64,000 nucleotides of DNA from a plasmid. A program made the translations under genes and the position numbers. The notes under the pieces are model-generated. The model did not search any database. It saw nothing but the letters and a program-made list of their open reading frames with translations, and was not told the DNA's origin. Shown here one piece after another: positions 24,294 to 37,163 of the stretch. Each line of letters starts with the position of its first letter. The stretch's first letter is position 1. The stretch is taken from assembly GCF_056712565.1 (NCBI RefSeq), contig NZ_JBWXXM010000003.1; one strand, 5' to 3'.

Positions 24294-26495
24294 ATGATGA
24301 TAAGCAAAAAGTATACGCTTTGGGCTCTCAACCCACTGCTTCTTACCATGATGGCGCCAGCAGTCGCTCAACAAACCGATGATGAAACGTTCGTGGTGTC
24401 TGCCAACCGCAGCAATCGCACCGTAGCGGAGATGGCGCAAACCACCTGGGTTATCGAAAACGCCGAACTGGAACAGCAGATTCAGGGCGGCAAAGAGCTT
24501 AAAGACGCACTGGCTCAGCTGATCCCTGGCCTTGACGTCAGCAGCCGGAGCCGCACCAACTACGGTATGAATGTGCGTGGCCGCCCGCTGGTCGTGCTGG
24601 TTGACGGCGTGCGTCTCAACTCTTCACGTACCGACAGCCGACAACTGGACTCTATAGATCCTTTTAATATCGACCATATTGAAGTGATCTCCGGTGCGAC
24701 GTCCCTGTACGGCGGCGGCAGTACCGGTGGCCTGATCAACATCGTGACCAAAAAAGGCCAGCCGGAAACCATGATGGAGTTTGAGGCTGGCACCAAAAGT
24801 GGCTTTAGCAGCAGTAAAGATCACGATGAACGCATTGCCGGAGCTGTCTCCGGCGGAAATGAGCATATCTCCGGACGTCTTTCCGTGGCATATCAGAAAT
24901 TTGGCGGCTGGTTTGACGGTAACGGCGATGCCACCTTGCTTGATAACACCCAGACCGGCCTGCAGTACTCCGATCGGCTGGACATCATGGGAACTGGTAC
25001 GCTGAACATCGATGAATCCCGGCAGCTTCAGTTGATCACACAGTACTATAAAAGCCAGGGCGACGACGATTACGGGCTTAATCTCGGGAAAGGCTTCTCT
25101 GCCATCAGAGGGACCAGCACGCCATTCGTCAGTAACGGGCTGAATTCCGACCGTATTCCCGGCACTGAGCGGCATTTGATCAGCCTGCAGTACTCTGACA
25201 GCGCTTTTCTGGGACAGGAGCTGGTCGGTCAGGTTTACTACCGCGATGAGTCGTTGCGATTCTACCCGTTCCCGACGGTAAATGCGAACAAACAGGTGAC
25301 GGCTTTCTCTTCGTCACAGCAGGACACCGACCAGTACGGCATGAAACTGACTCTGAACAGCAAACCGATGGACGGCTGGCAAATCACCTGGGGGCTGGAT
25401 GCTGATCATGAGCGCTTTACCTCCAACCAGATGTTCTTCGACCTGGCTCAGGCAAGCGCTTCCGGAGGGCTGAACAACAAGAAGATTTACACCACCGGGC
25501 GCTATCCGTCGTATGACATCACCAACCTGGCGGCCTTCCTGCAATCAGGCTATGACATCAATAATCTCTTTACCCTCAACGGTGGCGTACGCTATCAGTA
25601 CACTGAAAACAAGATTGATGATTTCATCGGCTACGCGCAGCAACGGCAGATTGCCGCCGGGAAGGCTACATCCGCCGACGCCATTCCTGGCGGCTCAGTC
25701 GATTACGACAACTTCCTGTTCAACGCCGGTCTGCTGATGCACATCACCGAACGCCAGCAGGCATGGCTCAACTTCTCCCAGGGCGTGGAGCTGCCGGACC
25801 CGGGTAAATACTATGGTCGCGGCATCTATGGTGCTGCAGTGAACGGCCATCTTCCTCTAACAAAGAGTGTGAACGTCAGCGACAGCAAGCTGGAAGGCGT
25901 GAAAGTCGATTCTTATGAGCTGGGCTGGCGCTTTACTGGCAATAATCTGCGTACCCAAATCGCGGCCTACTATTCGATTTCTGATAAGAGCGTGGTGGCG
26001 AATAAAGATCTGACCATCAGCGTGGTGGACGACAAACGCCGTATTTACGGCGTGGAAGGTGCGGTGGACTACCTGATTCCTGATACTGACTGGAGTACCG
26101 GAGTGAACTTCAACGTGCTGAAAACTGAGTCGAAAGTGAACGGTACCTGGCAGAAATACGATGTGAAGACAGCAAGCCCATCAAAAGCGACAGCCTACAT
26201 TGGCTGGGCACCGGACCCGTGGAGTCTGCGCGTGCAGAGCACCACCTCCTTTGACGTGAGCGACGCGCAGGGCTACAAGGTCGATGGCTATACCACCGCG
26301 GATCTGCTCGGCAGTTATCAGCTTCCGGTGGGTACACTCAGCTTCAGCATTGAAAACCTCTTCGACCGTGACTACACCACTGTCTGGGGGCAGCGTGCAC
26401 CACTGTACTACAGCCCGGGTTACGGCCCAGCGTCACTGTACGACTACAAAGGCAGGGGCCGAACCTTTGGTCTGAACTACTCTGTGCTGTTCTGA
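24294..26495 (+). CDS. iutA: IutA, TonB-dependent ferric aerobactin receptor
   Basis: 733 aa with signal peptide, TonB box region, C-terminal ...NYSVLF typical of TonB-dependent receptors. Confidence 0.9.
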   Translation: MMISKKYTLWALNPLLLTMMAPAVAQQTDDETFVVSANRSNRTVAEMAQTTWVIENAELEQQIQGGKELKDALAQLIPGLDVSSRSRTNYGMNVRGRPLVVLVDGVRLNSSRTDSRQLDSIDPFNIDHIEVISGATSLYGGGSTGGLINIVTKKGQPETMMEFEAGTKSGFSSSKDHDERIAGAVSGGNEHISGRLSVAYQKFGGWFDGNGDATLLDNTQTGLQYSDRLDIMGTGTLNIDESRQLQLITQYYKSQGDDDYGLNLGKGFSAIRGTSTPFVSNGLNSDRIPGTERHLISLQYSDSAFLGQELVGQVYYRDESLRFYPFPTVNANKQVTAFSSSQQDTDQYGMKLTLNSKPMDGWQITWGLDADHERFTSNQMFFDLAQASASGGLNNKKIYTTGRYPSYDITNLAAFLQSGYDINNLFTLNGGVRYQYTENKIDDFIGYAQQRQIAAGKATSADAIPGGSVDYDNFLFNAGLLMHITERQQAWLNFSQGVELPDPGKYYGRGIYGAAVNGHLPLTKSVNVSDSKLEGVKVDSYELGWRFTGNNLRTQIAAYYSISDKSVVANKDLTISVVDDKRRIYGVEGAVDYLIPDTDWSTGVNFNVLKTESKVNGTWQKYDVKTASPSKATAYIGWAPDPWSLRVQSTTSFDVSDAQGYKVDGYTTADLLGSYQLPVGTLSFSIENLFDRDYTTVWGQRAPLYYSPGYGPASLYDYKGRGRTFGLNYSVLF

Positions 26496-26632: not shown

Positions 26633-27019
26633 TGCTCATTTCCTCAAAAAATACAAGAAAAGAATTAGTATTCTAACAAAAAGTGAAATAAATTGTATCA
26701 AACTCCCTCTTTTAATCCTGTTGAGTAAATCAGCTTTTGCAATAGGATTGAAAGAGTGTAAGTGGAATCTCTTCCGGATACTCGTTACCACCGTGGCTAG
26801 AATATCTACGGCTGCGGGCCAGTAATAGATTAAGTGATAACAGCTGTCTGGAAATGTAGGGGCGTATCCACTAATCATAATCATTGTGAGATAAATATTA
26901 CGGGGCATTTTATAATGAATAAAATATACTCTCTAAAATATTGTCATATTACCAATACCATGAAGGTGATGCTGCCAACTTACTGATTTAGTGTATGATG
27001 GTGTTTTTGAGGTGCTCCA

Positions 27020-27295
27020 GTGGCTTCTGTTTCTATCAGCTGTCCCTCCTGTTCAGCTACTGACGGGGTGGTGCGTAACGGCAAAAGCACCGCCGGACAT
27101 CAGCGCTATCTCTGCTCTCACTGCCGTAAAACATGGCAACTGCAGTTCACTTACACCGCTTCTCAACCCGGTACGCACCAGAAAATCATTGATATGGCCA
27201 TGAATGGCGTTGGATGCCGGGTAACTGCCCGCATTATGGGCGTTGGCCTCAACACGATTTTACGTCACTTAAAAAACTCAGGCCGCAGTCGGTAA
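27020..27295 (+). CDS. insA: IS1 InsA
   Basis: 91 aa identical to copy 1 InsA. Confidence 0.95.
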
Positions 27296-27717
27296 CCTCG
27301 CGCATACAGCCGGGCAGTGATGTGATTGTCTGCGCTGAAATGGACGAACAGTGGGGCTATGTCGGGGCTAAATCGCGCCAGCGCTGGCTGTTTTACGCGT
27401 ATGACAGTCTCCGGAAGACGGTTGTTGCGCACGTATTCGGTGAACGCACTATGGCGACGCTGGGGCGTCTTATGAGCCTGCTGTCACCCTTTGACGTGGT
27501 GATATGGATGACGGATGGCTGGCCGCTGTATGAATCCCGCCTGAAGGGAAAGCTGCACGTAATCAGCAAGCGATATACGCAGCGAATTGAGCGGCATAAC
27601 CTGAATCTGAGGCAGCACCTGGCACGGCTGGGACGGAAGTCGCTGTCGTTCTCAAAATCGGTGGAGCTGCATGACAAAGTCATCGGGCATTATCTGAACA
27701 TAAAACACTATCAATAA
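27214..27717 (+). CDS. insB: IS1 InsB
   Basis: 167 aa identical to copy 1 InsB. Confidence 0.95.
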
Positions 27718-27727
27718 GTTGGAGTCA

Positions 27728-28402
27728 TTACCGTGCACGGTAACGGGCCATATCAATGAGCAGTTCCTCTCCAATTTTATTTGCCCCTAGAGAGCGGCGA
27801 GTTTTCTTCACTTCAATGACAATCTTCTCTTTCTTCAGAAGAAAATCCTGTCTGGATGATGAACCTGCGAAGCTAGGTGAATTTTCTTCAGGTCTGACAT
27901 CATTAAAATGCAGCAGCAGAAGAGCATGAACAAGATCCTGTACATCATACTCGTCATTAATTTCAAGCGGCGTTCTGTCATTGTATCGTTGCTTTAATTG
28001 ACGACAAAAAGCTGGAAATTTATTGAGTATATTTATAATCAAATCCAGTTCGGCATGTTTTGTTGCTATAGTCGATGCCGTGCCGGAGTAAGTTAAATCG
28101 TCTCTGGCTGCATCAAAAATAGGTTTGTAATGTCTAACCAATCCCTGATAATTACTAGACCAAGCAATCCTTTGTGTATCATTAAAATCTTTGTAGTAAT
28201 CAGATTCCTTTCCATAACTGTCTTCAAGTAACTTTTTTGCTCTTGCAATCCAGTTATTACCTTTAGCCGAATCAATATATTCCTGGCTTCTGTGACTAAA
28301 TGCACTTGTTCCCATATATTTTGTCGACATGACAGAATTGTACTCTTGTTCAAGCACTTCAAATCTTTCAGCTAAGGTCTTCTTCGTCATAGCGCAATCC
28401 AA
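27728..28402 (-). CDS. hypothetical protein with PD-(D/E)xK-like motif; C-terminus and stop codon supplied by IS1 end (probably 3'-truncated)
   Basis: 224 aa; C-terminal region ...LLLLHFNDVRPEE...(25 aa)...KIVIEVKK fits hhhD...hhhExK pattern; stop TAA lies inside IS1 terminal GGTAATGA. Confidence 0.5.
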   Translation of the reverse strand: MDCAMTKKTLAERFEVLEQEYNSVMSTKYMGTSAFSHRSQEYIDSAKGNNWIARAKKLLEDSYGKESDYYKDFNDTQRIAWSSNYQGLVRHYKPIFDAARDDLTYSGTASTIATKHAELDLIINILNKFPAFCRQLKQRYNDRTPLEINDEYDVQDLVHALLLLHFNDVRPEENSPSFAGSSSRQDFLLKKEKIVIEVKKTRRSLGANKIGEELLIDMARYRAR

Positions 28403-28559: not shown

Positions 28560-28754
28560 ATGAACGTCAAGAACATGTTTTACGGTGCCATTCTGGTAAG
28601 TGCTGTATGGGCGGTTATTTTGCTCTCATGGTTTGAATCCAGCCTTACCTTAAGCGATTACCTCAGGTACGAATCGGTAATCCTGATCCCATGCCTGCTG
28701 TGGGTTGCTGTTTATGGGTTAGGTAAACGTTACCTCCAAAGAACATCAAACTAG
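28560..28754 (+). CDS. hypothetical small membrane protein (64 aa, two predicted TM helices)
   Basis: MNVKNMFYGAILVSAVWAVILLSWFESSLTLSDYLRYESVILIPCLLWVAVYGLGKRY...; preceded by extended -10-like TGGTATAAT (~28521) and followed by hairpin TCCCTGGCT-CACCTGGAC-AGCCAGGGA. Confidence 0.4.
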   Translation: MNVKNMFYGAILVSAVWAVILLSWFESSLTLSDYLRYESVILIPCLLWVAVYGLGKRYLQRTSN

Positions 28755-28829: not shown

Positions 28830-29309
28830 CTACTGGCTTGCTGTGCCAAACTTTCCGTTGCAGATTTCCTCATTCACAATGGCCTGAAACATGGAAACAG
28901 AATTTCTAGCCTTATCCCTCAGTGCATTAATGAGTTCTGTGTCGTGTATTTTGTTGTAGAAAATGAAAGTAGAAACATCAAACTGGAGTTTAAATGCTGC
29001 TTTCCTTATGGCTAAACCTGACGTGATCGTTATCTCATTATGTATGCGAAGATAGGCAAGATAATCATCGTTATTTGCTTCACACTGCTCATATAAATAT
29101 TTTTGCATGAGAGATTGAGACAAGGCCAGAAATTCCACATATCGTTTGGTTTTTATTTCTTTATCTTTTAATCCCTGTACTGCCGCTTCTTTTTTTAATT
29201 CGTGCTTTTGTGTTAGCTTAAGAGTCAGCCACCCCCCTAAAATAGTCAGCAACGACCCCAAACCTATTTTTACGGCATTATCAGCCACATCCACCCACTC
29301 AGTCGCCAT
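28830..29309 (-). CDS. hypothetical protein (159 aa) with N-terminal TM segment
   Basis: AT-rich ORF, N-terminal hydrophobic helix IGLGSLLTILGGWLTL; divergent from 29427-29876. Confidence 0.45.
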   Translation of the reverse strand: MATEWVDVADNAVKIGLGSLLTILGGWLTLKLTQKHELKKEAAVQGLKDKEIKTKRYVEFLALSQSLMQKYLYEQCEANNDDYLAYLRIHNEITITSGLAIRKAAFKLQFDVSTFIFYNKIHDTELINALRDKARNSVSMFQAIVNEEICNGKFGTASQ

Positions 29310-29426: not shown

Positions 29427-29876
29427 ATGGTTAAATTTCCAGGTGAAGTTATGAGTTCGTCCGCTGCTGTAACCGTTATAACTGGTGTTCTTGTTTTTGT
29501 TGGTGGTCAGCTCATTGTAAAGAGCGCGATTGAACCTTATATAGAATTCAAGAAACAATTGGGAAAAATATCAAATCTGCTATTAGCTAACCAAGCTAAA
29601 TTAGCTAATCCTTGTGCTGTTGAAATGTCTGAGATCATCCATGAGTTGAAAGATGCCGCAGCTCAGTTAATGTCGAAGCATTCAGCTTTGCCTTTCTATA
29701 TCAAAAAATTCCATATCGGATTCCGCTTTGTTCCATCAACGCCTGAAATTATTAGTTCGGCGCAAAAATTGAATTTGATAGCATCAATACATGAAGGTAA
29801 AAGCAAGGAAAGTACATATGAGCACATAGCCGAGATTGGACGTATGCTCAAAATCCCAACCACCTATTCTCTTTAA
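29427..29876 (+). CDS. hypothetical protein (149 aa) with N-terminal TM segment
   Basis: AT-rich ORF, hydrophobic VTVITGVLVFVGGQLIV; followed by hairpin plus T-tract terminator at ~29926-29957. Confidence 0.45.
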   Translation: MVKFPGEVMSSSAAVTVITGVLVFVGGQLIVKSAIEPYIEFKKQLGKISNLLLANQAKLANPCAVEMSEIIHELKDAAAQLMSKHSALPFYIKKFHIGFRFVPSTPEIISSAQKLNLIASIHEGKSKESTYEHIAEIGRMLKIPTTYSL

Positions 29877-30049
29877 TCTTCACGCCGATCAGATTACATA
29901 ATCCACGCGCCACCTGGACATTCAGGTAAAAAAGTCCAACTGGTGAGGTTGGGCTTTTTGGCTTTCCGGTTCTGTTGGTGGCTATGACCGGAGAAAATTG
30001 CTCTACACCTAACGCTTACATTTTATTTACAGCGTTTGATATCTTCCTC

Positions 30050-30094
30050 GCCTTTAACGCCTTTAACGCCTTTAACGCCTTTAACGCCTTTAAG
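30050..30094. repeat. 9-bp tandem repeat (GCCTTTAAC)x5
   Basis: GCCTTTAACGCCTTTAACGCCTTTAACGCCTTTAACGCCTTTAAG read directly. Confidence 0.9.
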
Positions 30095-30501
30095 GGGGGA
30101 AGATAGAGCAACTCACCGATGATGAATAAAGTGGACGAAGAGACGATAACTACACTCCCATCCAGGGGGGGGCTTTTTTTGTGGTACTGTAGTGTGGGAG
30201 TAAGTTCGGGTCTCATATTGAATGAGGCGATTGCGAGCTGCCTTTCATCGAAAACTAATGTCCATTGTCATTGTATTGTCTGACTCTATCTCGTAACAAG
30301 TCTTTGACACAAAGTTTTATATTTTTATCAAAGTGGACATGAGGGGAATTAAATTTGTGATCTTTTTCAAATAATGTGTTCTTGATAGTAGATTCTGGTT
30401 AGTGATATCTATTAACAATATATTAAATTTCTTTTGTATTATCGCTGATAAAACTACTGTATTGGTATACTATATATTATTGAGTAACAGGAGATATCAC
30501 T

Positions 30502-32004
30502 ATGAAGAAATTTTATCAATTTAGGGATGAACAGCGAAAGGAGCTTGAACAACATGATTTTTATAGTTTGATTTCTTCAGATTGTATAGCGTTGAAAGAT
30601 AAACTATTATTTGCTCCTGTTATGGCTCATTTCATAATGAACTTCAGAGACATGAATAAATGGGTTATCAGGTTTGATAACAATGATAATGAATATAAAT
30701 CTGTTATAAACGGTGGAACAATCGAGGATGAAACACATTCAAGATTGTTTCTGGAAGACTGGAGGAAACTATATATAGATGACAAACTTAACTGGAAAGC
30801 AAGTGATGTTATATACTGGTTGTTTATTAGTCGAGAAATGGAGTGTTTCCGAAAATTTGGTATTGATTTTATGAGACTTTGTGTAGATGATGGAGGAGAC
30901 CCAATACTTCGATATTCTCACTCCGAGTCAGGAGAAACTTGCGGTAATATATTCTTTTCAAGAATTAGTCCTATTGCTGATCAAGTTGCCAATCATTTGG
31001 GAATATCACTCCGTTATTTTGGAACATTTCACCTTAATCTTGAAAATGGACATGTATGGAAGTCAGAAGGTGTTTTTGAAAATATAGAGTTGTCACCAGA
31101 TTCTTATAAGAAAATGGCTACTCTATCAAAGAGAATGTTTGATATATTTGAAGGAATTCATGACTCTTTTTATAATTACCTGTCCAGTTATGTTCTTAAT
31201 GGAAGTCATCCGTCATTTTTTGAATCATTACCTGTAGGGAAAAATGTTGCACCTATATACCCTGAATTTGTGATAGAAAACAAAAGCCATAACGATGGTA
31301 GACATATTGAACATATAAACAATTACCTGGAAAAAATATCGAGTCATGAGTTCTTTAAATGGCTGGTTAACACCTCAATAGACCCTCAATTGAAATTGAA
31401 AAGTTTCATACCTCTTTGGATTGTTGATATTATGGGGTATAGAGATATTAATAAATATGTTTTTACATATGAACAGCCTGAATCAGAAAGTGAAAAGATT
31501 ATAAATGATTATGCATTACACTTGTCAGAGCATAGCCGTTTATTTTATCATGACTGGAAGTCACTTCAACTTGATGATATGTTACGTTGGAGTGCCAGTG
31601 ATACTCTTGAGTTTATTTTTCTTAATTCAGATATGGATATGCATAGAGAAAATATAGTTAAGTTTTCTTTGTTCGGATTAAAACACAGAGATCCTGTTAT
31701 CAGGTTCTGGTTTATGATGATACTGGAGTTAAGTGGAAAAGAATTTTTCTCTCATGTTGGAGATATAGCTTTACAGGTGGAAAGTAAATATAATATTTAT
31801 CTCCCATATTTATGTGGACGCCATGCAACAGAAAATGAGCATGAAGCATATAATAATATGTATGAGCATTTTATGGTAAAGGAACTTAGCCCTGAACAAA
31901 GTGATCTAATAATACAAATTACAGACATGGTTATGCGGTCATTATTGAATAATTTGGATATCTCATATCGATATGTAGTAAATAATTTATTGGCAGCTCG
32001 TTAG
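30502..32004 (+). CDS. hypothetical 500-aa protein with internal duplication, AT-rich
   Basis: ATG at 30502 with AGGAG RBS; internal repeats HSRLFLEDWRKLYIDDKLNWKASDVIYWLFISREMECF and HSRLFYHDWKSLQLDDMLRWSASDTLEFIFLNSDMDMH; terminator hairpin AAATCCCACTT-TTCA-GAGTGGGATTTGTTT at ~32040-32070. Confidence 0.6.
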   Translation: MKKFYQFRDEQRKELEQHDFYSLISSDCIALKDKLLFAPVMAHFIMNFRDMNKWVIRFDNNDNEYKSVINGGTIEDETHSRLFLEDWRKLYIDDKLNWKASDVIYWLFISREMECFRKFGIDFMRLCVDDGGDPILRYSHSESGETCGNIFFSRISPIADQVANHLGISLRYFGTFHLNLENGHVWKSEGVFENIELSPDSYKKMATLSKRMFDIFEGIHDSFYNYLSSYVLNGSHPSFFESLPVGKNVAPIYPEFVIENKSHNDGRHIEHINNYLEKISSHEFFKWLVNTSIDPQLKLKSFIPLWIVDIMGYRDINKYVFTYEQPESESEKIINDYALHLSEHSRLFYHDWKSLQLDDMLRWSASDTLEFIFLNSDMDMHRENIVKFSLFGLKHRDPVIRFWFMMILELSGKEFFSHVGDIALQVESKYNIYLPYLCGRHATENEHEAYNNMYEHFMVKELSPEQSDLIIQITDMVMRSLLNNLDISYRYVVNNLLAAR

Positions 32005-32789
32005 AAGAACAGCATTGGTATGACTCTGATGCTCCTTAAAATCCCACTTTTCAGAGTGGGATTTGTTTAATGCCCAGAACAGGGGGAATTTCCATTCATG
32101 CCCAAAAAATATTTTGATGTCCTCTCGCCAATTCTCGCGCTCAGTCCTTCCTGAAAAACCTCAGAATTCACGTAGCGCATCGCCGCTACTGCATCCATCA
32201 AAAAAAATGACAGCTTTTTTAATCATCTTGTGTTACTCAACTTACTGAAAAATGTGATTTATGAAAATGCCGCCGTCGGCATCAAGCAGTTGGCCAGCGC
32301 AACCGGCTGCATCGACCGCAACAAAAAAACTGAAAGAGAAAGCCCCTCAAATGAGGGAGAAAAAAAGGAAGTGCAGTCAACGAGAGGCGTAAAAAACCCG
32401 ACTGGTGAGGTCGGGTTTTAATACGGTTCCGGTTCTGAGTTGGTGGCTCTGACCGGAGGAAGTCACTCTACACCTAACGTTTACATTTTATGCACTCAGC
32501 CGCAGTATTGCAACTAACTGTGGTTAAGGCACCACATTTAGTTGTGTATCGTGGGTTTTATATACCTTATAATCATGAAGTTAGCCGTGTGGTGTGGCTT
32601 CTTCCTCTGCCCTTCCCGTTTATGCAGGTATGAACGATTTTAAAGTCCTGGCTGAACAAACAGGTGGTGCTGTGTTTAGTGCTCTGGCAGGAGGAAGTCA
32701 CTCTGCACCTAACAATGCGAGAGAACCGTTGTGACAGGCAGTGTAAGAGCAAGCAACGGTGATTTCCTCCAGTTTTACTGGAGAAACGG

Positions 32790-32885
32790 ATGATTAATCT
32801 GTTAATCATCGTTCTCAGGGCTGTGGTCGCCGTTGCAAACGCGCTGATTGCAATTCTGGAACTGATTCGCCAGTTCATCGACTGA
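32790..32885 (+). CDS. putative small hydrophobic toxin peptide (31 aa), DinQ/TisB-like, copy 1
   Basis: MINLLIIVLRAVVAVANALIAILELIRQFID; GGAG RBS; start codon inside perfect inverted repeat GATGATTAA-TCTG-TTAATCATC; coordinates approximate. Confidence 0.45.
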   Translation: MINLLIIVLRAVVAVANALIAILELIRQFID

Positions 32886-33707
32886 TGACAGCGGAAACGT
32901 AACTAAGGACAGGAAGTGAACCGCTTCCTGCCCTTTAACGTACTGTGATATTTTTCAAAAAAACTCACCAATATTCTCCTCGGCAGAAATGACATAACTC
33001 ACTGTAAAATAACAAATCATCTAAACGCCAGCTTTGTATTGAGCGCGTTGGCCAACGCCTTTATCAGCTGCGACCGCACCAGATAATTTGAATAAGATTT
33101 CCCGCATCACCTGGACATACAGGTTATTCTGTCCATACCTCATTAGTTACAACATTCACGCGTTCTGTTCCTTTATCCGGTGCCCTGTTCCAGTATATGT
33201 GCCCATATCCTGGGTTATTCAGGATAACCGCTTCCTTTTCGCCCTGTCCTGTCGTTCATATCCCCCTGGACAAAAATGCATTATCGGAAAAAATGTCCAA
33301 AATTTTTTTGGTGATCGGAATTTTTGTTGTCGGACGCACCTCTTCTTCAGGTCATAATTGCTGACACATCCCAAAAAACAGGAGCGGAGATTTAAAAATT
33401 GAGTCACTTACCCGCCAAAATTTTCCAGATTTCACGTAGCGTACCGTCGATACTGTATCCATCAACAAATGACTATTTTTTGAATGTGTCATTTCCTGTA
33501 ACCTACTGAAAAATATCAGTGAATGACAATATCGGCGACAGCATCGGAGCTGATAGCCAGTTTCCTGAATGCATATGGCCAGAACAGTAAATTTGAACCA
33601 GGTTCTCACGTCACCAGGCGACGTGTCTGGGAAACTGGTGAACAACAGGCACAGAAAAGCCCAACTTTATGGGGGTCAGTTCAGTGAGGTTGGGCTAAGA
33701 GAAACGA

Positions 33708-33803
33708 ATGATTAACCTGTTAATCATCATTCTCAGGGATGTGGTCGCCGTTGCAAACGCGCGGATTGCAGTTCTGGAACTGATTCGCCAGTTCATCGTT
33801 TGA
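33708..33803 (+). CDS. putative small hydrophobic toxin peptide (31 aa), DinQ/TisB-like, copy 2
   Basis: MINLLIIILRDVVAVANARIAVLELIRQFIV; same start-codon inverted repeat ATGATTAA-CCTG-TTAATCAT; coordinates approximate. Confidence 0.4.
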   Translation: MINLLIIILRDVVAVANARIAVLELIRQFIV

Positions 33804-34028
33804 TGACAGCGGAAACGTAACTCAGGACAGGAAGTTCCAAATAGCTCCCAGCCAGCATATGTAATTTTCAAAGGGGCAGTTGTTAACTCTGTAATAACGC
33901 CATGTAAAGTATTCCTGCCCCCTCCATGATCCTCCATAGTATTTCTTGAGTTAATTTTCAAAAAGCTTCTGATGGTGATGCTGCCAACTTACTGATTTAG
34001 TGTATGATGGTGTTTTTGAGGTGCTCCA

Positions 34029-34304
34029 GTGGCTTCTGTTTCTATCAGCTGTCCCTCCTGTTCAGCTACTGACGGGGTGGTGCGTAACGACAAAAGCACC
34101 ACCGGACATCAGCGCTATCTCTGCTCTCACTGCCGTAAAACATGGCAACTGCAGTTCACTTACACCGCTTCTCAACCCGGTACGCACCAGAAAATCATTG
34201 ATATGGCCATGAATGGCGTTGGATGCCGGGCAACTGCCCGCATTATGGGCGTTGGCCTCAACACGATTTTACGTCACTTAAAAAACTCAGGCCGCAGTCG
34301 GTAA
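34029..34304 (+). CDS. insA: IS1 InsA
   Basis: 91 aa. Confidence 0.95.
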
Positions 34305-34726
34305 CCTCGCGCATACAGCCGGGCAGTGACGTCATCGTCTGCGCGGAAATGGACGAACAGTGGGGCTATGTCGGGGCTAAATCGCGCCAGCGCTGGCTGT
34401 TTTACGCGTATGACAGTCTCCGGAAGACGGTTGTTGCGCACGTATTCGGTGAACGCACTATGGCGACGCTGGGGCGTCTTATGAGCCTGCTGTCACCCTT
34501 TGACGTGGTGATATGGATGACGGATGGCTGGCCGCTGTATGAATCCCGCCTGAAGGGAAAGCTGCACGTAATCAGCAAGCGATATACGCAGCGAATTGAG
34601 CGGCATAACCTGAATCTGAGGCAGCACCTGGCACGGCTGGGACGGAAGTCGCTGTCGTTTTCAAAATCGGTGGAGCTGCATGACAAAGTCATCGGGCATT
34701 ATCTGAACATAAAACACTATCAATAA
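34223..34726 (+). CDS. insB: IS1 InsB
   Basis: 167 aa. Confidence 0.95.
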
Positions 34727-34929
34727 GTTGGAGTCATTACCGCCTTGACCATCAGATAGTTATTTTGGTGCTAGGGATACTGAGTGTGAACAGTTAGCGC
34801 GCGTCCTCGCCAGTTAGCTCGCTACGCTCGGTTACACGACGGCTACGAGTACTAGTGATAATTATTGACTGAGGTATGTGCTCTTCCTGTTTCCTTTTTT
34901 GATGTGTTGCTCTCATTTTAAACAACTTT

Positions 34930-35016: not shown

Positions 35017-36192
35017 ATGTTCAGAATGAGACTCATGGAAACACTTAACCAGTGCATAAACGCTGGTCATGAAATGACGAAGGCTATCGCCATTGCACAG
35101 TTTAATGATGACAGCCCGGAAGCGAGGAAAATCACCCGACGCTGGAGAATAGGTGAAGCAGCGGATTTAGTTGGAGTATCTTCTCAGGCTATCAGGGATG
35201 CCGAGAAAGCAGGCCGGCTACCGCACCCGGATATGGAAATACGAGGACGGGTTGAGCAACGTGTTGGTTATACAATTGAACAAATTAATCATATGCGTGA
35301 CGTGTTTGGTACGAGACTACGACGTGCTGAAGACGTATTTCCGCCGGTGATTGGAGTTGCTGCTCATAAAGGGGGCGTTTACAAAACCTCTGTTTCTGTT
35401 CATCTTGCTCAGGATCTGGCTCTGAAGGGATTACGTGTTCTGCTCGTGGAAGGTAACGACCCCCAGGGAACAGCATCGATGTATCACGGCTGGGTGCCAG
35501 ATCTTCATATTCATGCAGAGGATACTCTCCTTCCCTTCTATCTTGGGGAAAAGGACGATGTCACTTATGCAATAAAGCCTACTTGCTGGCCTGGGCTTGA
35601 CATTATTCCTTCCTGTTTGGCTCTGCACCGCATTGAAACTGAGCTAATGGGCAAATTTGATGAAGGTAAATTGCCCACCGATCCACACCTGATGCTCCGA
35701 CTGGCCATTGAAACCGTCGCTCATGACTATGATGTCATTGTCATTGACAGCGCGCCTAACCTAGGTATCGGCACGATTAATGTTGTATGTGCTGCTGATG
35801 TGTTGATTGTCCCCACGCCTGCTGAGTTGTTCGACTACACTTCCGCTCTGCAGTTTTTCGATATGCTTCGTGATCTGCTCAAAAACGTAGATCTTAAAGG
35901 ATTCGAGCCTGATGTACGTATTTTGCTTACCAAATACAGTAATAGTAATGGTTCTCAGTCCCCGTGGATGGAGGAGCAAATTCGGGACGCCTGGGGAAGC
36001 ATGGTCCTAAAAAATGTTGTGCGTGAAACGGATGAAGTTGGTAAAGGTCAGATCCGGATGAGAACTGTTTTTGAACAGGCTATTGATCAACGCTCTTCAA
36101 CAGGTGCCTGGAGAAATGCCCTTTCTATTTGGGAACCTGTCTGCAATGAAATTTTCGATCGTTTGATTAAACCACGCTGGGAGATTAGATAA
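35017..36192 (+). CDS. sopA: SopA, ParA-type partition ATPase
   Basis: Deviant Walker [12 protein letters not shown]-plasmid SopA-like sequence; start may be a few codons downstream. Confidence 0.9.
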
Positions 36193-37163
36193 TGAAGCGT
36201 GCGCCTGTCATTCCAAAACATACGATTAAGACTCAACCGCTTGAAGATACTCCGTCATCGGCACCAGCTGCACCGATGGTGGATTCGTTAATTGCGCGCG
36301 TAGGAGCTATGGCTCGTGGCAATGCTATTACTTTGCCTGTATGTGGTAGGGACGTGAAATTTACCCTTGAGGTGCTCCGGGGAGATAGTGTTGAGAAGAC
36401 CTCTCGGGTATGGTCAGGTAATGAACGTGACCAGGAACTGCTTACCGAAGACGCCCTGGATGATCTTATCCCTTCTTTTCTACTGACAGGTCAGCAGACA
36501 CCAGCATTCGGTCGAAGAGTGTCTGGGGTCATAGAAATTGCCGATGGGAGCCGCCGTCGTAAAGCTGCTGCACTTACAGAAAGTGATTATCGAGTTCTGG
36601 TTGGTGAGCTGGATGATGAGCAGATGGCTGCATTGTCCAGATTGGGTAACGATTATAGGCCAACAAGTGCTTATGAACGTGGTCAGCGTTATGCAAGCCG
36701 ATTGCAGAATGAATTTGCTGGAAATATTTCTGCGCTGGCTGATGCAGAAAATATTTCACGTAAGATTATTACCCGCTGTATCAACACAGCTAAACTGCCT
36801 AAATCAGTTGTTGCTCTTTTTTCTCATCCCGGTGAACTATCTGCCCGGTCAGGTGATGCACTTCAAAGAGCTTTTACAGATAAAGAAGAATTACTTAAGC
36901 AGCAGGCATCTAACCTTCACGAGCAGAAAAAAGCAGGAGTGATATTTGAAGCTGAAGAAGTCATCACTCTTTTAACGTCTGTGCTTAAAACGTCATCTGC
37001 CTCAAGAACTAGCTTAAGCTCACGACATCAGTTTGCTCCTGGAGCGACAGTGTTGTACAAGGGCGATAAAATGGTGTTAAACCTAGATAGATCTCGTATT
37101 CCAACTGAGTGTATAGAGAGAATTGAAGCCATTCTTAAGGAACTTGAAAAAGCGGCACTTTGA
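36192..37163 (+). CDS. sopB: SopB, ParB-type centromere-binding protein
   Basis: 323 aa directly downstream of sopA and upstream of sopC repeats. Confidence 0.9.

Follow-up and report, generated by a model that had tools for sequence, protein, structure and literature searches.

Tandem AetD-like oxidase gene on an Escherichia coli ColV-type plasmid, with one predicted complete and one degenerate metal site

The DNA analysed here is a stretch of 64,000 nucleotides (the window, in which position 1 is the first letter) from a plasmid of the ColV/IncFIB, pS88 (pECOS88) type (NCBI RefSeq assembly GCF_056712565.1, contig NZ_JBWXXM010000003.1). The subject is an open reading frame (ORF) at 30502-32004 on the + strand, which encodes a protein of 500 amino acids (aa) with a predicted mass of about 58 kDa. 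The DNA of window positions 30300-32200 is 100% identical in pECOS88 (NC_011747.1), where the product is WP_000715081.1, a "hypothetical protein", and all of the database entries examined label the protein hypothetical or uncharacterized. Sequence comparison and structure prediction place it in the AetD family of heme-oxygenase-like diiron oxidases (HDOs), with two HDO domains in one chain. The features of the gene are listed below; the codon positions of D76 and H79 were read from the sequence, and the other four were calculated from residue numbers.

30347-30501, + strand: upstream region conserved together with the gene, presumed promoter and 5' untranslated region (blastn against Salmonella)
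30489-30493, + strand: Shine-Dalgarno sequence AGGAG, 8 nt 5' of the start codon (direct reading)
30502-32004, + strand: coding sequence, 500 aa, tandem AetD-like HDO protein, WP_000715081.1 (sequence and model)
30502-31206, + strand: N-terminal HDO domain, aa 1-235, with a predicted complete AetD-type diiron site (phmmer, conservation)
30727-31053, + strand: span of the six predicted iron-ligand codons of the N-domain, D76 30727-29, H79 30736-38, E145 30934-36, H177 31030-32, E181 31042-44 and H184 31051-53 (alignment to the AetD ligands)
31207-31296, + strand: inter-domain linker, aa 236-265 (low pLDDT, highest dN/dS)
31297-32001, + strand: C-terminal HDO-like domain, aa 266-500, with a degenerate metal site (AetD match, conservation)
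32039-32064, + strand: hairpin 3' of the stop codon, possible weak intrinsic terminator (folding)

An earlier note, made from the letters of the window, described a 500-aa ORF of foreign origin with an AGGAG ribosome-binding site and its own terminator hairpin, and most of this description stands. The ORF begins with ATG and contains no internal stop codon, and AGGAG is found 8 nt 5' of it. The hairpin exists, and its 11-bp stem is part of a 66-nt fold with an energy of -19.9 kcal/mol (z = -2.4 relative to shuffled sequences); only the short U-tract GUUUAAU follows it and a consensus terminator scan does not call it, and a terminator at this place is plausible but weak. The hairpin falls inside 30347-32066, the block conserved with the locus of the Salmonella homolog (blastn, 85% identity, with the match beginning at 30347), and a scan of 30347-30501 called no strong sigma-70 consensus. 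The two 1-kb windows over the gene have a G+C content of 0.35 and 0.32, compared with approximately 0.45-0.55 for the plasmid backbone, and this low value, together with the presence of the single-gene unit on other mobile elements, supports the foreign origin. Outside the conserved block, approximately 400 bp upstream of the ORF, lie five perfect tandem copies of the 9-bp unit CGCCTTTAA (30049-30093).

The earlier note recognised no family for the protein. This holds for the Pfam and NCBIfam scans, which return chance-level matches only (ribosomal protein S16), and for PADLOC, in which no family matches the protein at E<=1, but it does not hold overall, as a search of the PDB sequences places both halves in the AetD family. 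With phmmer, aa 1-231 match AetD with E=8e-18, and aa 251-500 alone match it with E=1e-5; a family profile of 58 members matches AetD with E=6e-38 and no other solved protein. The identity to AetD is 24%. The AlphaFold2 model, computed with the family alignment as input, is an all-helical globular protein with a mean predicted local distance difference test score (pLDDT) of 93.5 and a predicted template modelling score (pTM) of 0.92, and its sole low-confidence stretch is aa 257-262 in the linker (pLDDT <50). This confident, soluble model is consistent with the absence of transmembrane helices and a signal peptide, which had been noted previously.

A Foldseek search of the PDB with this model reveals a heme-oxygenase-like helical bundle with AetD as the best match: 21 AetD chains rank first, with TM-scores of 0.84-0.87 (normalised to AetD length) and root-mean-square deviations of 2.1-2.6 Å, and all other folds of the HDO, TenA or heme-oxygenase type have E>0.03. 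The HDOs SznF, UndA, BesC, CADD, PolF, HrmI and MboA share the helical bundle and the 3-His/3-4-carboxylate dimetal chemistry, and SznF is a precedent for an HDO domain within a multi-domain protein; however, all of these are weak structural matches (TM 0.3-0.65) with no sequence match, and none is a tandem repeat of two HDO domains. In the AFDB50 set, B7LI34 of E. coli S88 ("Uncharacterized protein", 100% identity) superposes at TM 0.98, and tandem homologs with 30-43% identity retain the two-domain geometry with query TM-scores (TMq) of 0.89-0.93. Thus, the comparisons lead to an AetD-family HDO of a rare tandem form and not to a housekeeping enzyme, which the earlier note had named as an outcome that would contradict it.

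AetD (Aetokthonos hydrillicola; PDB 8TWW, 8JI3) is the nitrile synthase of aetokthonotoxin biosynthesis. In its structure, Fe1 is bound by H79, H172, the bridging E176, and the amine nitrogen and a carboxylate oxygen of the substrate, and Fe2 is bound by D76, E140, E176 and H179 (PMC11611611, PMC10654658). F48, in aux-alpha2, replaces a Glu ligand of other HDOs and leaves Fe1 open for the substrate, Y167 hydrogen-bonds the substrate carboxylate, F44 and I146 clamp the indole, and S214 touches the C7 bromine (PMC11611611, PMC10654658). The equivalent residues in the two domains are given below, with conservation counted over 108 sequences (the query and 107 full-length homologs).

AetD F44: N-domain F44 (106/108); C-domain D309 (108/108)
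AetD F48: N-domain F48 (108/108); C-domain Y313 (108/108)
AetD D76: N-domain D76 (108/108); C-domain L341 (108/108)
AetD H79: N-domain H79 (108/108); C-domain H344 (108/108)
AetD E140: N-domain E145 (107/108); C-domain E409 (105/108)
AetD I146: N-domain F151 (92/108); C-domain F415 (108/108)
AetD Y167: N-domain Y172 (107/108); C-domain Y436 (107/108)
AetD H172: N-domain H177 (108/108); C-domain H441 (107/108)
AetD E176: N-domain E181 (107/108); C-domain mostly His (78/108), N445 in the query
AetD H179: N-domain H184 (100/108); C-domain not conserved, E448 in the query
AetD S214: N-domain F216 (95/108), compare SktA F214; C-domain L481 (61/108)

In the alignment, the 3-His/3-carboxylate diiron ligand set is complete in the N-domain and identical to that of AetD. 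The Phe at position 48 that opens Fe1, the carboxylate-binding Tyr and the aromatic clamp are also kept. Judged from these residues, the N-domain is equipped with all that the family requires to turn over an amino acid that chelates metal and carries a hydrophobic or aromatic side chain. The differences from AetD lie at S214, which is a Phe here, and at M139 and A142, which are Gly and Cys. The AetD homolog SktA of Nostoc punctiforme converts tryptophan to skatole, cyanide and bicarbonate (PMC11869266), and its F214 (PMC13108848) corresponds to F216 of the N-domain, which fits a substrate that is not halogenated at C7; T139 and T142 of SktA, compared by the published residues, are not shared.

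The same ligand set is incomplete in the C-domain, in which H344, E409 and H441 are retained, in addition to Y436. The pocket has also turned polar, as the positions of F44 and F48 are occupied by the invariant D309 and by Y313. The alignment predicts that the C-domain cannot build the Fe2 site and keeps at most a 2-His/1-Glu set, which is reminiscent of FlcD and HamA, HDOs with a 2-His/1-carboxylate mononuclear site and without the core-alpha3 ligands. Mononuclear HDOs arise through the loss of these ligands (PMC13108848, PMC11363339). In contrast to this likeness, FlcD and HamA show no detectable sequence similarity to the protein, and the carboxylate retained in the C-domain corresponds to a ligand of Fe2 in AetD. 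The further His found four residues past H441 in 78 of the 108 sequences is absent from the E. coli clade.

Two homologous 45-aa segments had led the earlier note to propose a duplicated domain. The duplication is real and larger than these segments, spanning the whole domains: the N-half and the C-half are 32% identical over 173 aa (E=3e-25), and the sequence matches show homology of each half to the other and to AetD. Purifying selection acts on both domains. The ratio of nonsynonymous to synonymous substitution rates (dN/dS), taken from comparisons without saturated dS, is 0.08-0.10 for the N-domain, 0.14-0.17 for the C-domain and 0.16-0.53 for the linker, where it is highest; the comparison of E. 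coli with Salmonella gives 0.10 (N-half), 0.17 (C-half) and 0.53 (linker).

AetD is a single-domain homodimer of approximately 240 aa, and its interface involves the helices alpha4a and alpha4b (PMC11611611, PMC10654658). The AetD alignment and the AlphaFold2 helix boundaries locate the equivalents of these helices at aa 92-109 and 357-374, inside the repeated segments flagged by the earlier note and in the best-conserved part of the repeat. Because the dimer-interface helices of AetD coincide with the most similar repeated segment, we infer that the fusion would be an intramolecular AetD homodimer with one catalytic and one non-canonical subunit. In the predicted models, the two-domain arrangement is fixed (pTM 0.92; TMq 0.89-0.93 among distant AFDB models). 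The protein differs in this respect from AetD and SktA, which are single-domain, and the 500-aa tandem is conserved in about 100 homologs.

The family is rare, with 738 matches at E<=1e-3 among 1.84 billion representative proteins, which comprise tandem proteins of approximately 500 aa, single-domain AetD/SktA-like proteins of approximately 240 aa, fragments and a few larger fusions. The single-domain proteins match the N-half of the family profile only. A candidate for a separate C-only gene (hit P0132) was rejected as a fragment, because only 11 nt separate its start from the end of a contig of 2.4 kb. Tandem members are found in three phyla, in Enterobacterales, Piscirickettsia, Comamonadaceae, Salinisphaera, Mycobacterium, Pseudonocardiales, Streptomyces, Actinomadura, Polyangium, Sorangium and Plesiocystis. 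Among the fusions, P0197 joins one HDO domain to a flavin monooxygenase, and P0196 (1039 aa) joins a tandem HDO to a weak IucA/IucC match. P0211, a metagenomic protein of 1222 aa, combines a tandem HDO with IucA/IucC (E=6e-9) and, at the C-terminus, with a ThsB-type TIR domain (E=1e-16). P0211 and P0196 are divergent tandem-HDO members, and their IucA/IucC-type part is an NIS synthetase domain; the combination of domains is unusual.

To characterise the neighbours, the ORFs within 6 kb of the gene were clustered over 37 loci. A cytochrome P450 gene (heme motif FxxGxxxCxG, Pfam PF00067) adjoins the tandem HDO gene in 16 of the 37, from Proteobacteria, Actinomycetota and Myxococcota. The biosynthetic cluster of AetD likewise has a P450, AetB; unlike that cluster, no context seen of the tandem family contains a halogenase or a tryptophanase. 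In Comamonas antarctica (L007, 10001-14216), the tandem HDO gene is followed by a translationally coupled P450 gene, the start of which overlaps the HDO stop codon, and by a major facilitator superfamily (MFS) transporter gene, and this HDO-P450-MFS cassette suggests the production and export of a small molecule. The P450 gene starts 54-87 bp 3' of the HDO gene in Acidovorax (L028) and in a metagenome-assembled genome (L022), and the loci of Sorangium and the actinomycetes contain O- and other methyltransferases in addition to the P450. Neighbour clusters 1 and 3 were discarded as opposite-strand shadow ORFs of P450 and methyltransferase genes in high-GC genomes.

Two adjacent tandem-HDO paralogs, 51% identical, are present in Amycolatopsis orientalis (L005, 10001-12986), where the pair adjoins a P450, two methyltransferases and a DUF6875 protein. 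In the second of these paralogs, the residual C-domain ligands are replaced (H to A, E to S and H to S). A conserved cluster of ORFs of approximately 500 aa points to adjacent paralogs in Actinomadura and S. triculaminicus as well, the loci L038, L040, L042 and L047 would have the same arrangement, and the set of paralogs, P450, methyltransferases and DUF6875 looks like a conserved actinomycete gene cluster. In the Enterobacterales and Piscirickettsia, the gene stands alone among insertion sequence (IS) elements, Tn3, and partition or transfer genes.

In the window, the gene lies between two copies of IS1 and is the largest gene of this segment, as the earlier note had it.

26961-27728, + strand: IS1 copy, left boundary of the segment (InsA/InsB ORFs, repeat start, pECOS88 annotation; end approximate)
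33970-34737, + strand: IS1 copy, right boundary of the segment (ORFs, repeat start, pECOS88 annotation; end approximate)

The end coordinates of both copies assume the canonical IS1 length of 768 bp. The similarity between the E. coli copy and its closest relatives stops approximately 150 bp upstream and approximately 60 bp downstream of the ORF, and the tblastx matches outside the gene proved to be short spurious segments. A search of plasmids with the whole IS1-bracketed segment is dominated by the IS1 ends and by dqlB repeats. The confinement of similarity to the gene flanks and the differing neighbours elsewhere indicate that the segment looks like a mosaic and not a functional unit. The suggestion of the earlier note that the protein is an effector of this segment is consequently not supported, nor does PADLOC match the protein; no neighbour is shared with the loci of the closest relatives.

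Several other features lie in or near the segment. The 224-aa ORF at 27728-28402 (- strand, TTG start) directly adjoins the IS1 end, and the PLSDB gene table for pECOS88 does not list it; its C-terminal approximately 120 aa match the PADLOC model 'Aga_Helical-REase', an Argonaute-associated restriction endonuclease (REase) domain, with E=4e-23, and it may be a truncated nuclease remnant or a pseudogene. Three small ORFs, at 28560-28754 (+), 28830-29309 (-) and 29427-29876 (+), lie between this ORF and the HDO gene; some have apparent membrane segments, none has a family match, and they are not shared with the other contexts of the HDO gene. On the other side, a 137-nt direct repeat (32781-32917 and 33699-33835; 93% identical, with copies 918 bp apart) coincides with the two dqlB genes (DinQ-like type I toxin) annotated in pECOS88, and dqlB-like sequence is very widespread among enterobacterial plasmids. 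The aerobactin receptor gene iutA (24294-26495, +) is immediately left of the left IS1, and sopA/sopB (35017-37163, +) are right of the right IS1. In pECOS88, sitABCD and not iutA precedes the left IS1, which indicates that the plasmid of the window is rearranged relative to pS88 at that IS1.

The gene is present in 266 of 5,426 complete E. coli genomes (4.9%), with 265 plasmid placements versus 5 chromosomal ones. Of the 267 matching E. coli records, 244 are at least 99% identical, and every listed record is annotated as a hypothetical protein and not as a pseudogene; the gene is intact and not a pseudogene, which in all related plasmids would have spoken against the earlier note. The gene is carried by 337 PLSDB plasmids, mostly from Escherichia and Salmonella, and the E. 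coli carriers include the neonatal-meningitis strain S88 and the E. coli type strain.

Taken together, these results favour a fused, pseudo-dimeric oxidase of the AetD/SktA type that would act on a free, probably aromatic, L-amino acid, to which we assign a probability of roughly 0.65 on the basis of sequence, model and analogy. In the proposed mechanism, the N-domain would bind the free L-amino acid, most likely an aromatic one such as tryptophan, and Fe(II)2 would assemble around the substrate. The substrate-triggered diiron site would react with O2 to give a peroxo-diferric species, and the aminopropionate chain would be oxidatively cleaved or rearranged. By analogy with AetD, the product may be a nitrile or an aldehyde, and by analogy with SktA, a methyl-arene with cyanide and CO2. 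The C-domain would be an obligatory structural partner subunit and may bind a ligand or contain a mononuclear 2-His/1-Glu site. Where a P450 gene adjoins, as in many bacteria, the product would be passed to that P450. In E. coli, the gene appears to have been acquired horizontally as a unit of one gene, which stands alone on ColV-type plasmids and on others, and the direct product would be the end product because the unit contains no partner gene. SktA offers a parallel, being an AetD-family HDO that acts on free tryptophan as a single self-sufficient enzyme, although it is single-domain; it demonstrates that E. coli expressing a lone AetD-family gene can form a volatile or toxic product.

Several observations weigh against this oxidase reading. 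The pseudo-dimer is read from the alignment and the predicted helix boundaries, and the identity of the substrate is read from a few conserved pocket residues at 24% identity to AetD. The ligand H184 is replaced in 8 of the 108 sequences. The second-sphere positions 139 and 142, which differ between AetD and SktA, are G144 and C147 here and match neither enzyme, and the outcome of the reaction is thus not predictable. The P450 partner is absent at the E. coli locus. Additionally, the ORFs pS88026-031, which lie between sitA and sopA, do not change significantly in lysogeny broth with an iron chelator, in serum or in urine, and for the pS88-like plasmid pAMM no value is given for four of them (PMC3438092); this transcriptome is used as a statement on the group and is not tied to one ORF number, and the lack of response does not point to any condition under which the enzyme would be important.

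The uncertainty about the pocket bears on a first alternative, an HDO enzyme that acts on another class of substrate, such as a fatty acid (UndA), a peptide C-terminus (MboA), a non-aromatic amino acid (BesC, PolF, HrmI) or an amine or acid for siderophore-like assembly. Identical ligand sets in HDOs support very different reactions (PMC13108848), positions 144 and 147 follow neither characterised enzyme, the IucA/IucC-type ligase domains joined to two divergent tandem members condense acids with amines, and the E. coli copy lies beside iutA on an iron-acquisition plasmid. However, AetD is the only solved HDO found by sequence and by far the best structural match, and the features for bidentate amino-acid binding (F48 for Glu, the Y167 equivalent and the clamp of F44 and F151) are kept, which makes this alternative unlikely. 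A role in iron or siderophore metabolism ranks low within it: the ORFs of the pS88 segment are not iron-regulated, and in all other contexts the gene is unlinked to aerobactin or other siderophore genes. It is similarly doubtful that the protein has two active sites, with a mononuclear iron of the C-domain on H344, H441 and E409 performing a second, FlcD/HamA-like step on the product of the N-domain. The near-invariance of these residues and Y436, the further His of most homologs, the purifying selection on the C-domain, the polar D309 and Y313, and the precedent of core-alpha3 ligand loss (PMC13108848, PMC11363339) are all in agreement with such a site. Nevertheless, E140 of AetD ligates Fe2 and not Fe1, which leaves the geometry of the triad unproven, the further His is lacking in the E. 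coli clade, and the Amycolatopsis paralog has lost all three residues yet is retained beside the canonical copy; domain packing or the binding of a ligand could explain the conservation equally well.

The effector role suggested by the earlier note, in defence or as a toxin together with the other IS1-bracketed genes, is very improbable. The Argonaute-associated REase-like ORF at 27728-28402, the two dqlB type I toxin loci downstream and the ThsB-type TIR domain of one distant metagenomic relative could be read in its favour, but the protein itself has no PADLOC match, the homology ends at the gene flanks with no neighbour shared by the other contexts, an absence of co-inheritance that weakly refutes the idea, and the partner conserved elsewhere, a P450 that in some loci is joined by methyltransferases, is of a kind usual in small-molecule biosynthesis. 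A remnant without catalytic activity, or a binding protein, that travels passively with the plasmid would be in keeping with the unregulated expression in serum, urine and low iron, the IS or transposon flanks that are always present in the Enterobacterales and Piscirickettsia, and the missing partner gene in E. coli. This explanation is hard to reconcile with six ligands and substrate contacts kept across three phyla, with a dN/dS of 0.11-0.16 and with the intact, nearly identical copies in 244 E. coli records, and it appears just as remote.

A literature search for WP_000715081, tandem or fused HDOs and AetD homologs found nothing beyond the SktA paper, in which all AetD homologs are of unknown function and the similarity network is dominated by cyanobacteria (PMC11869266). 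The fold and the class of chemistry are thus already known; what is new is the fused pseudo-dimer architecture, the conserved association with a P450 and the occurrence on virulence plasmids of E. coli. Having one intact and one degenerate site, the tandem form would represent an HDO that resembles a natural heterodimer. The conserved pairing of HDO and P450 in myxobacteria, actinomycetes and betaproteobacteria, in some cases joined by methyltransferases, points to unexplored small biosynthetic clusters.

For E. coli, the placement beside AetD and SktA makes a "hypothetical" gene a directly testable enzyme, as both characterised members form unusual products from tryptophan without helper enzymes (a nitrile, or skatole and cyanide). 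An enzyme that oxidises amino acids has probably gone unrecognised on virulence plasmids of E. coli. More speculatively, the plasmids of E. coli and Salmonella, including those of extraintestinal and avian pathogenic E. coli (ExPEC and APEC), might encode a self-sufficient aerobic enzyme for turning a free aromatic amino acid into a bioactive product that can diffuse, by means of a fused HDO of a kind not described before, in which a degenerate second domain replaces the second subunit of the dimer. If this is true, the product could be, for example, an indole nitrile or aldehyde, or a skatole-type compound with cyanide, the degenerate domain would possibly be a mononuclear-iron or regulatory site, and the gene would confer a new plasmid-borne metabolic trait of relevance to competition or host interaction.

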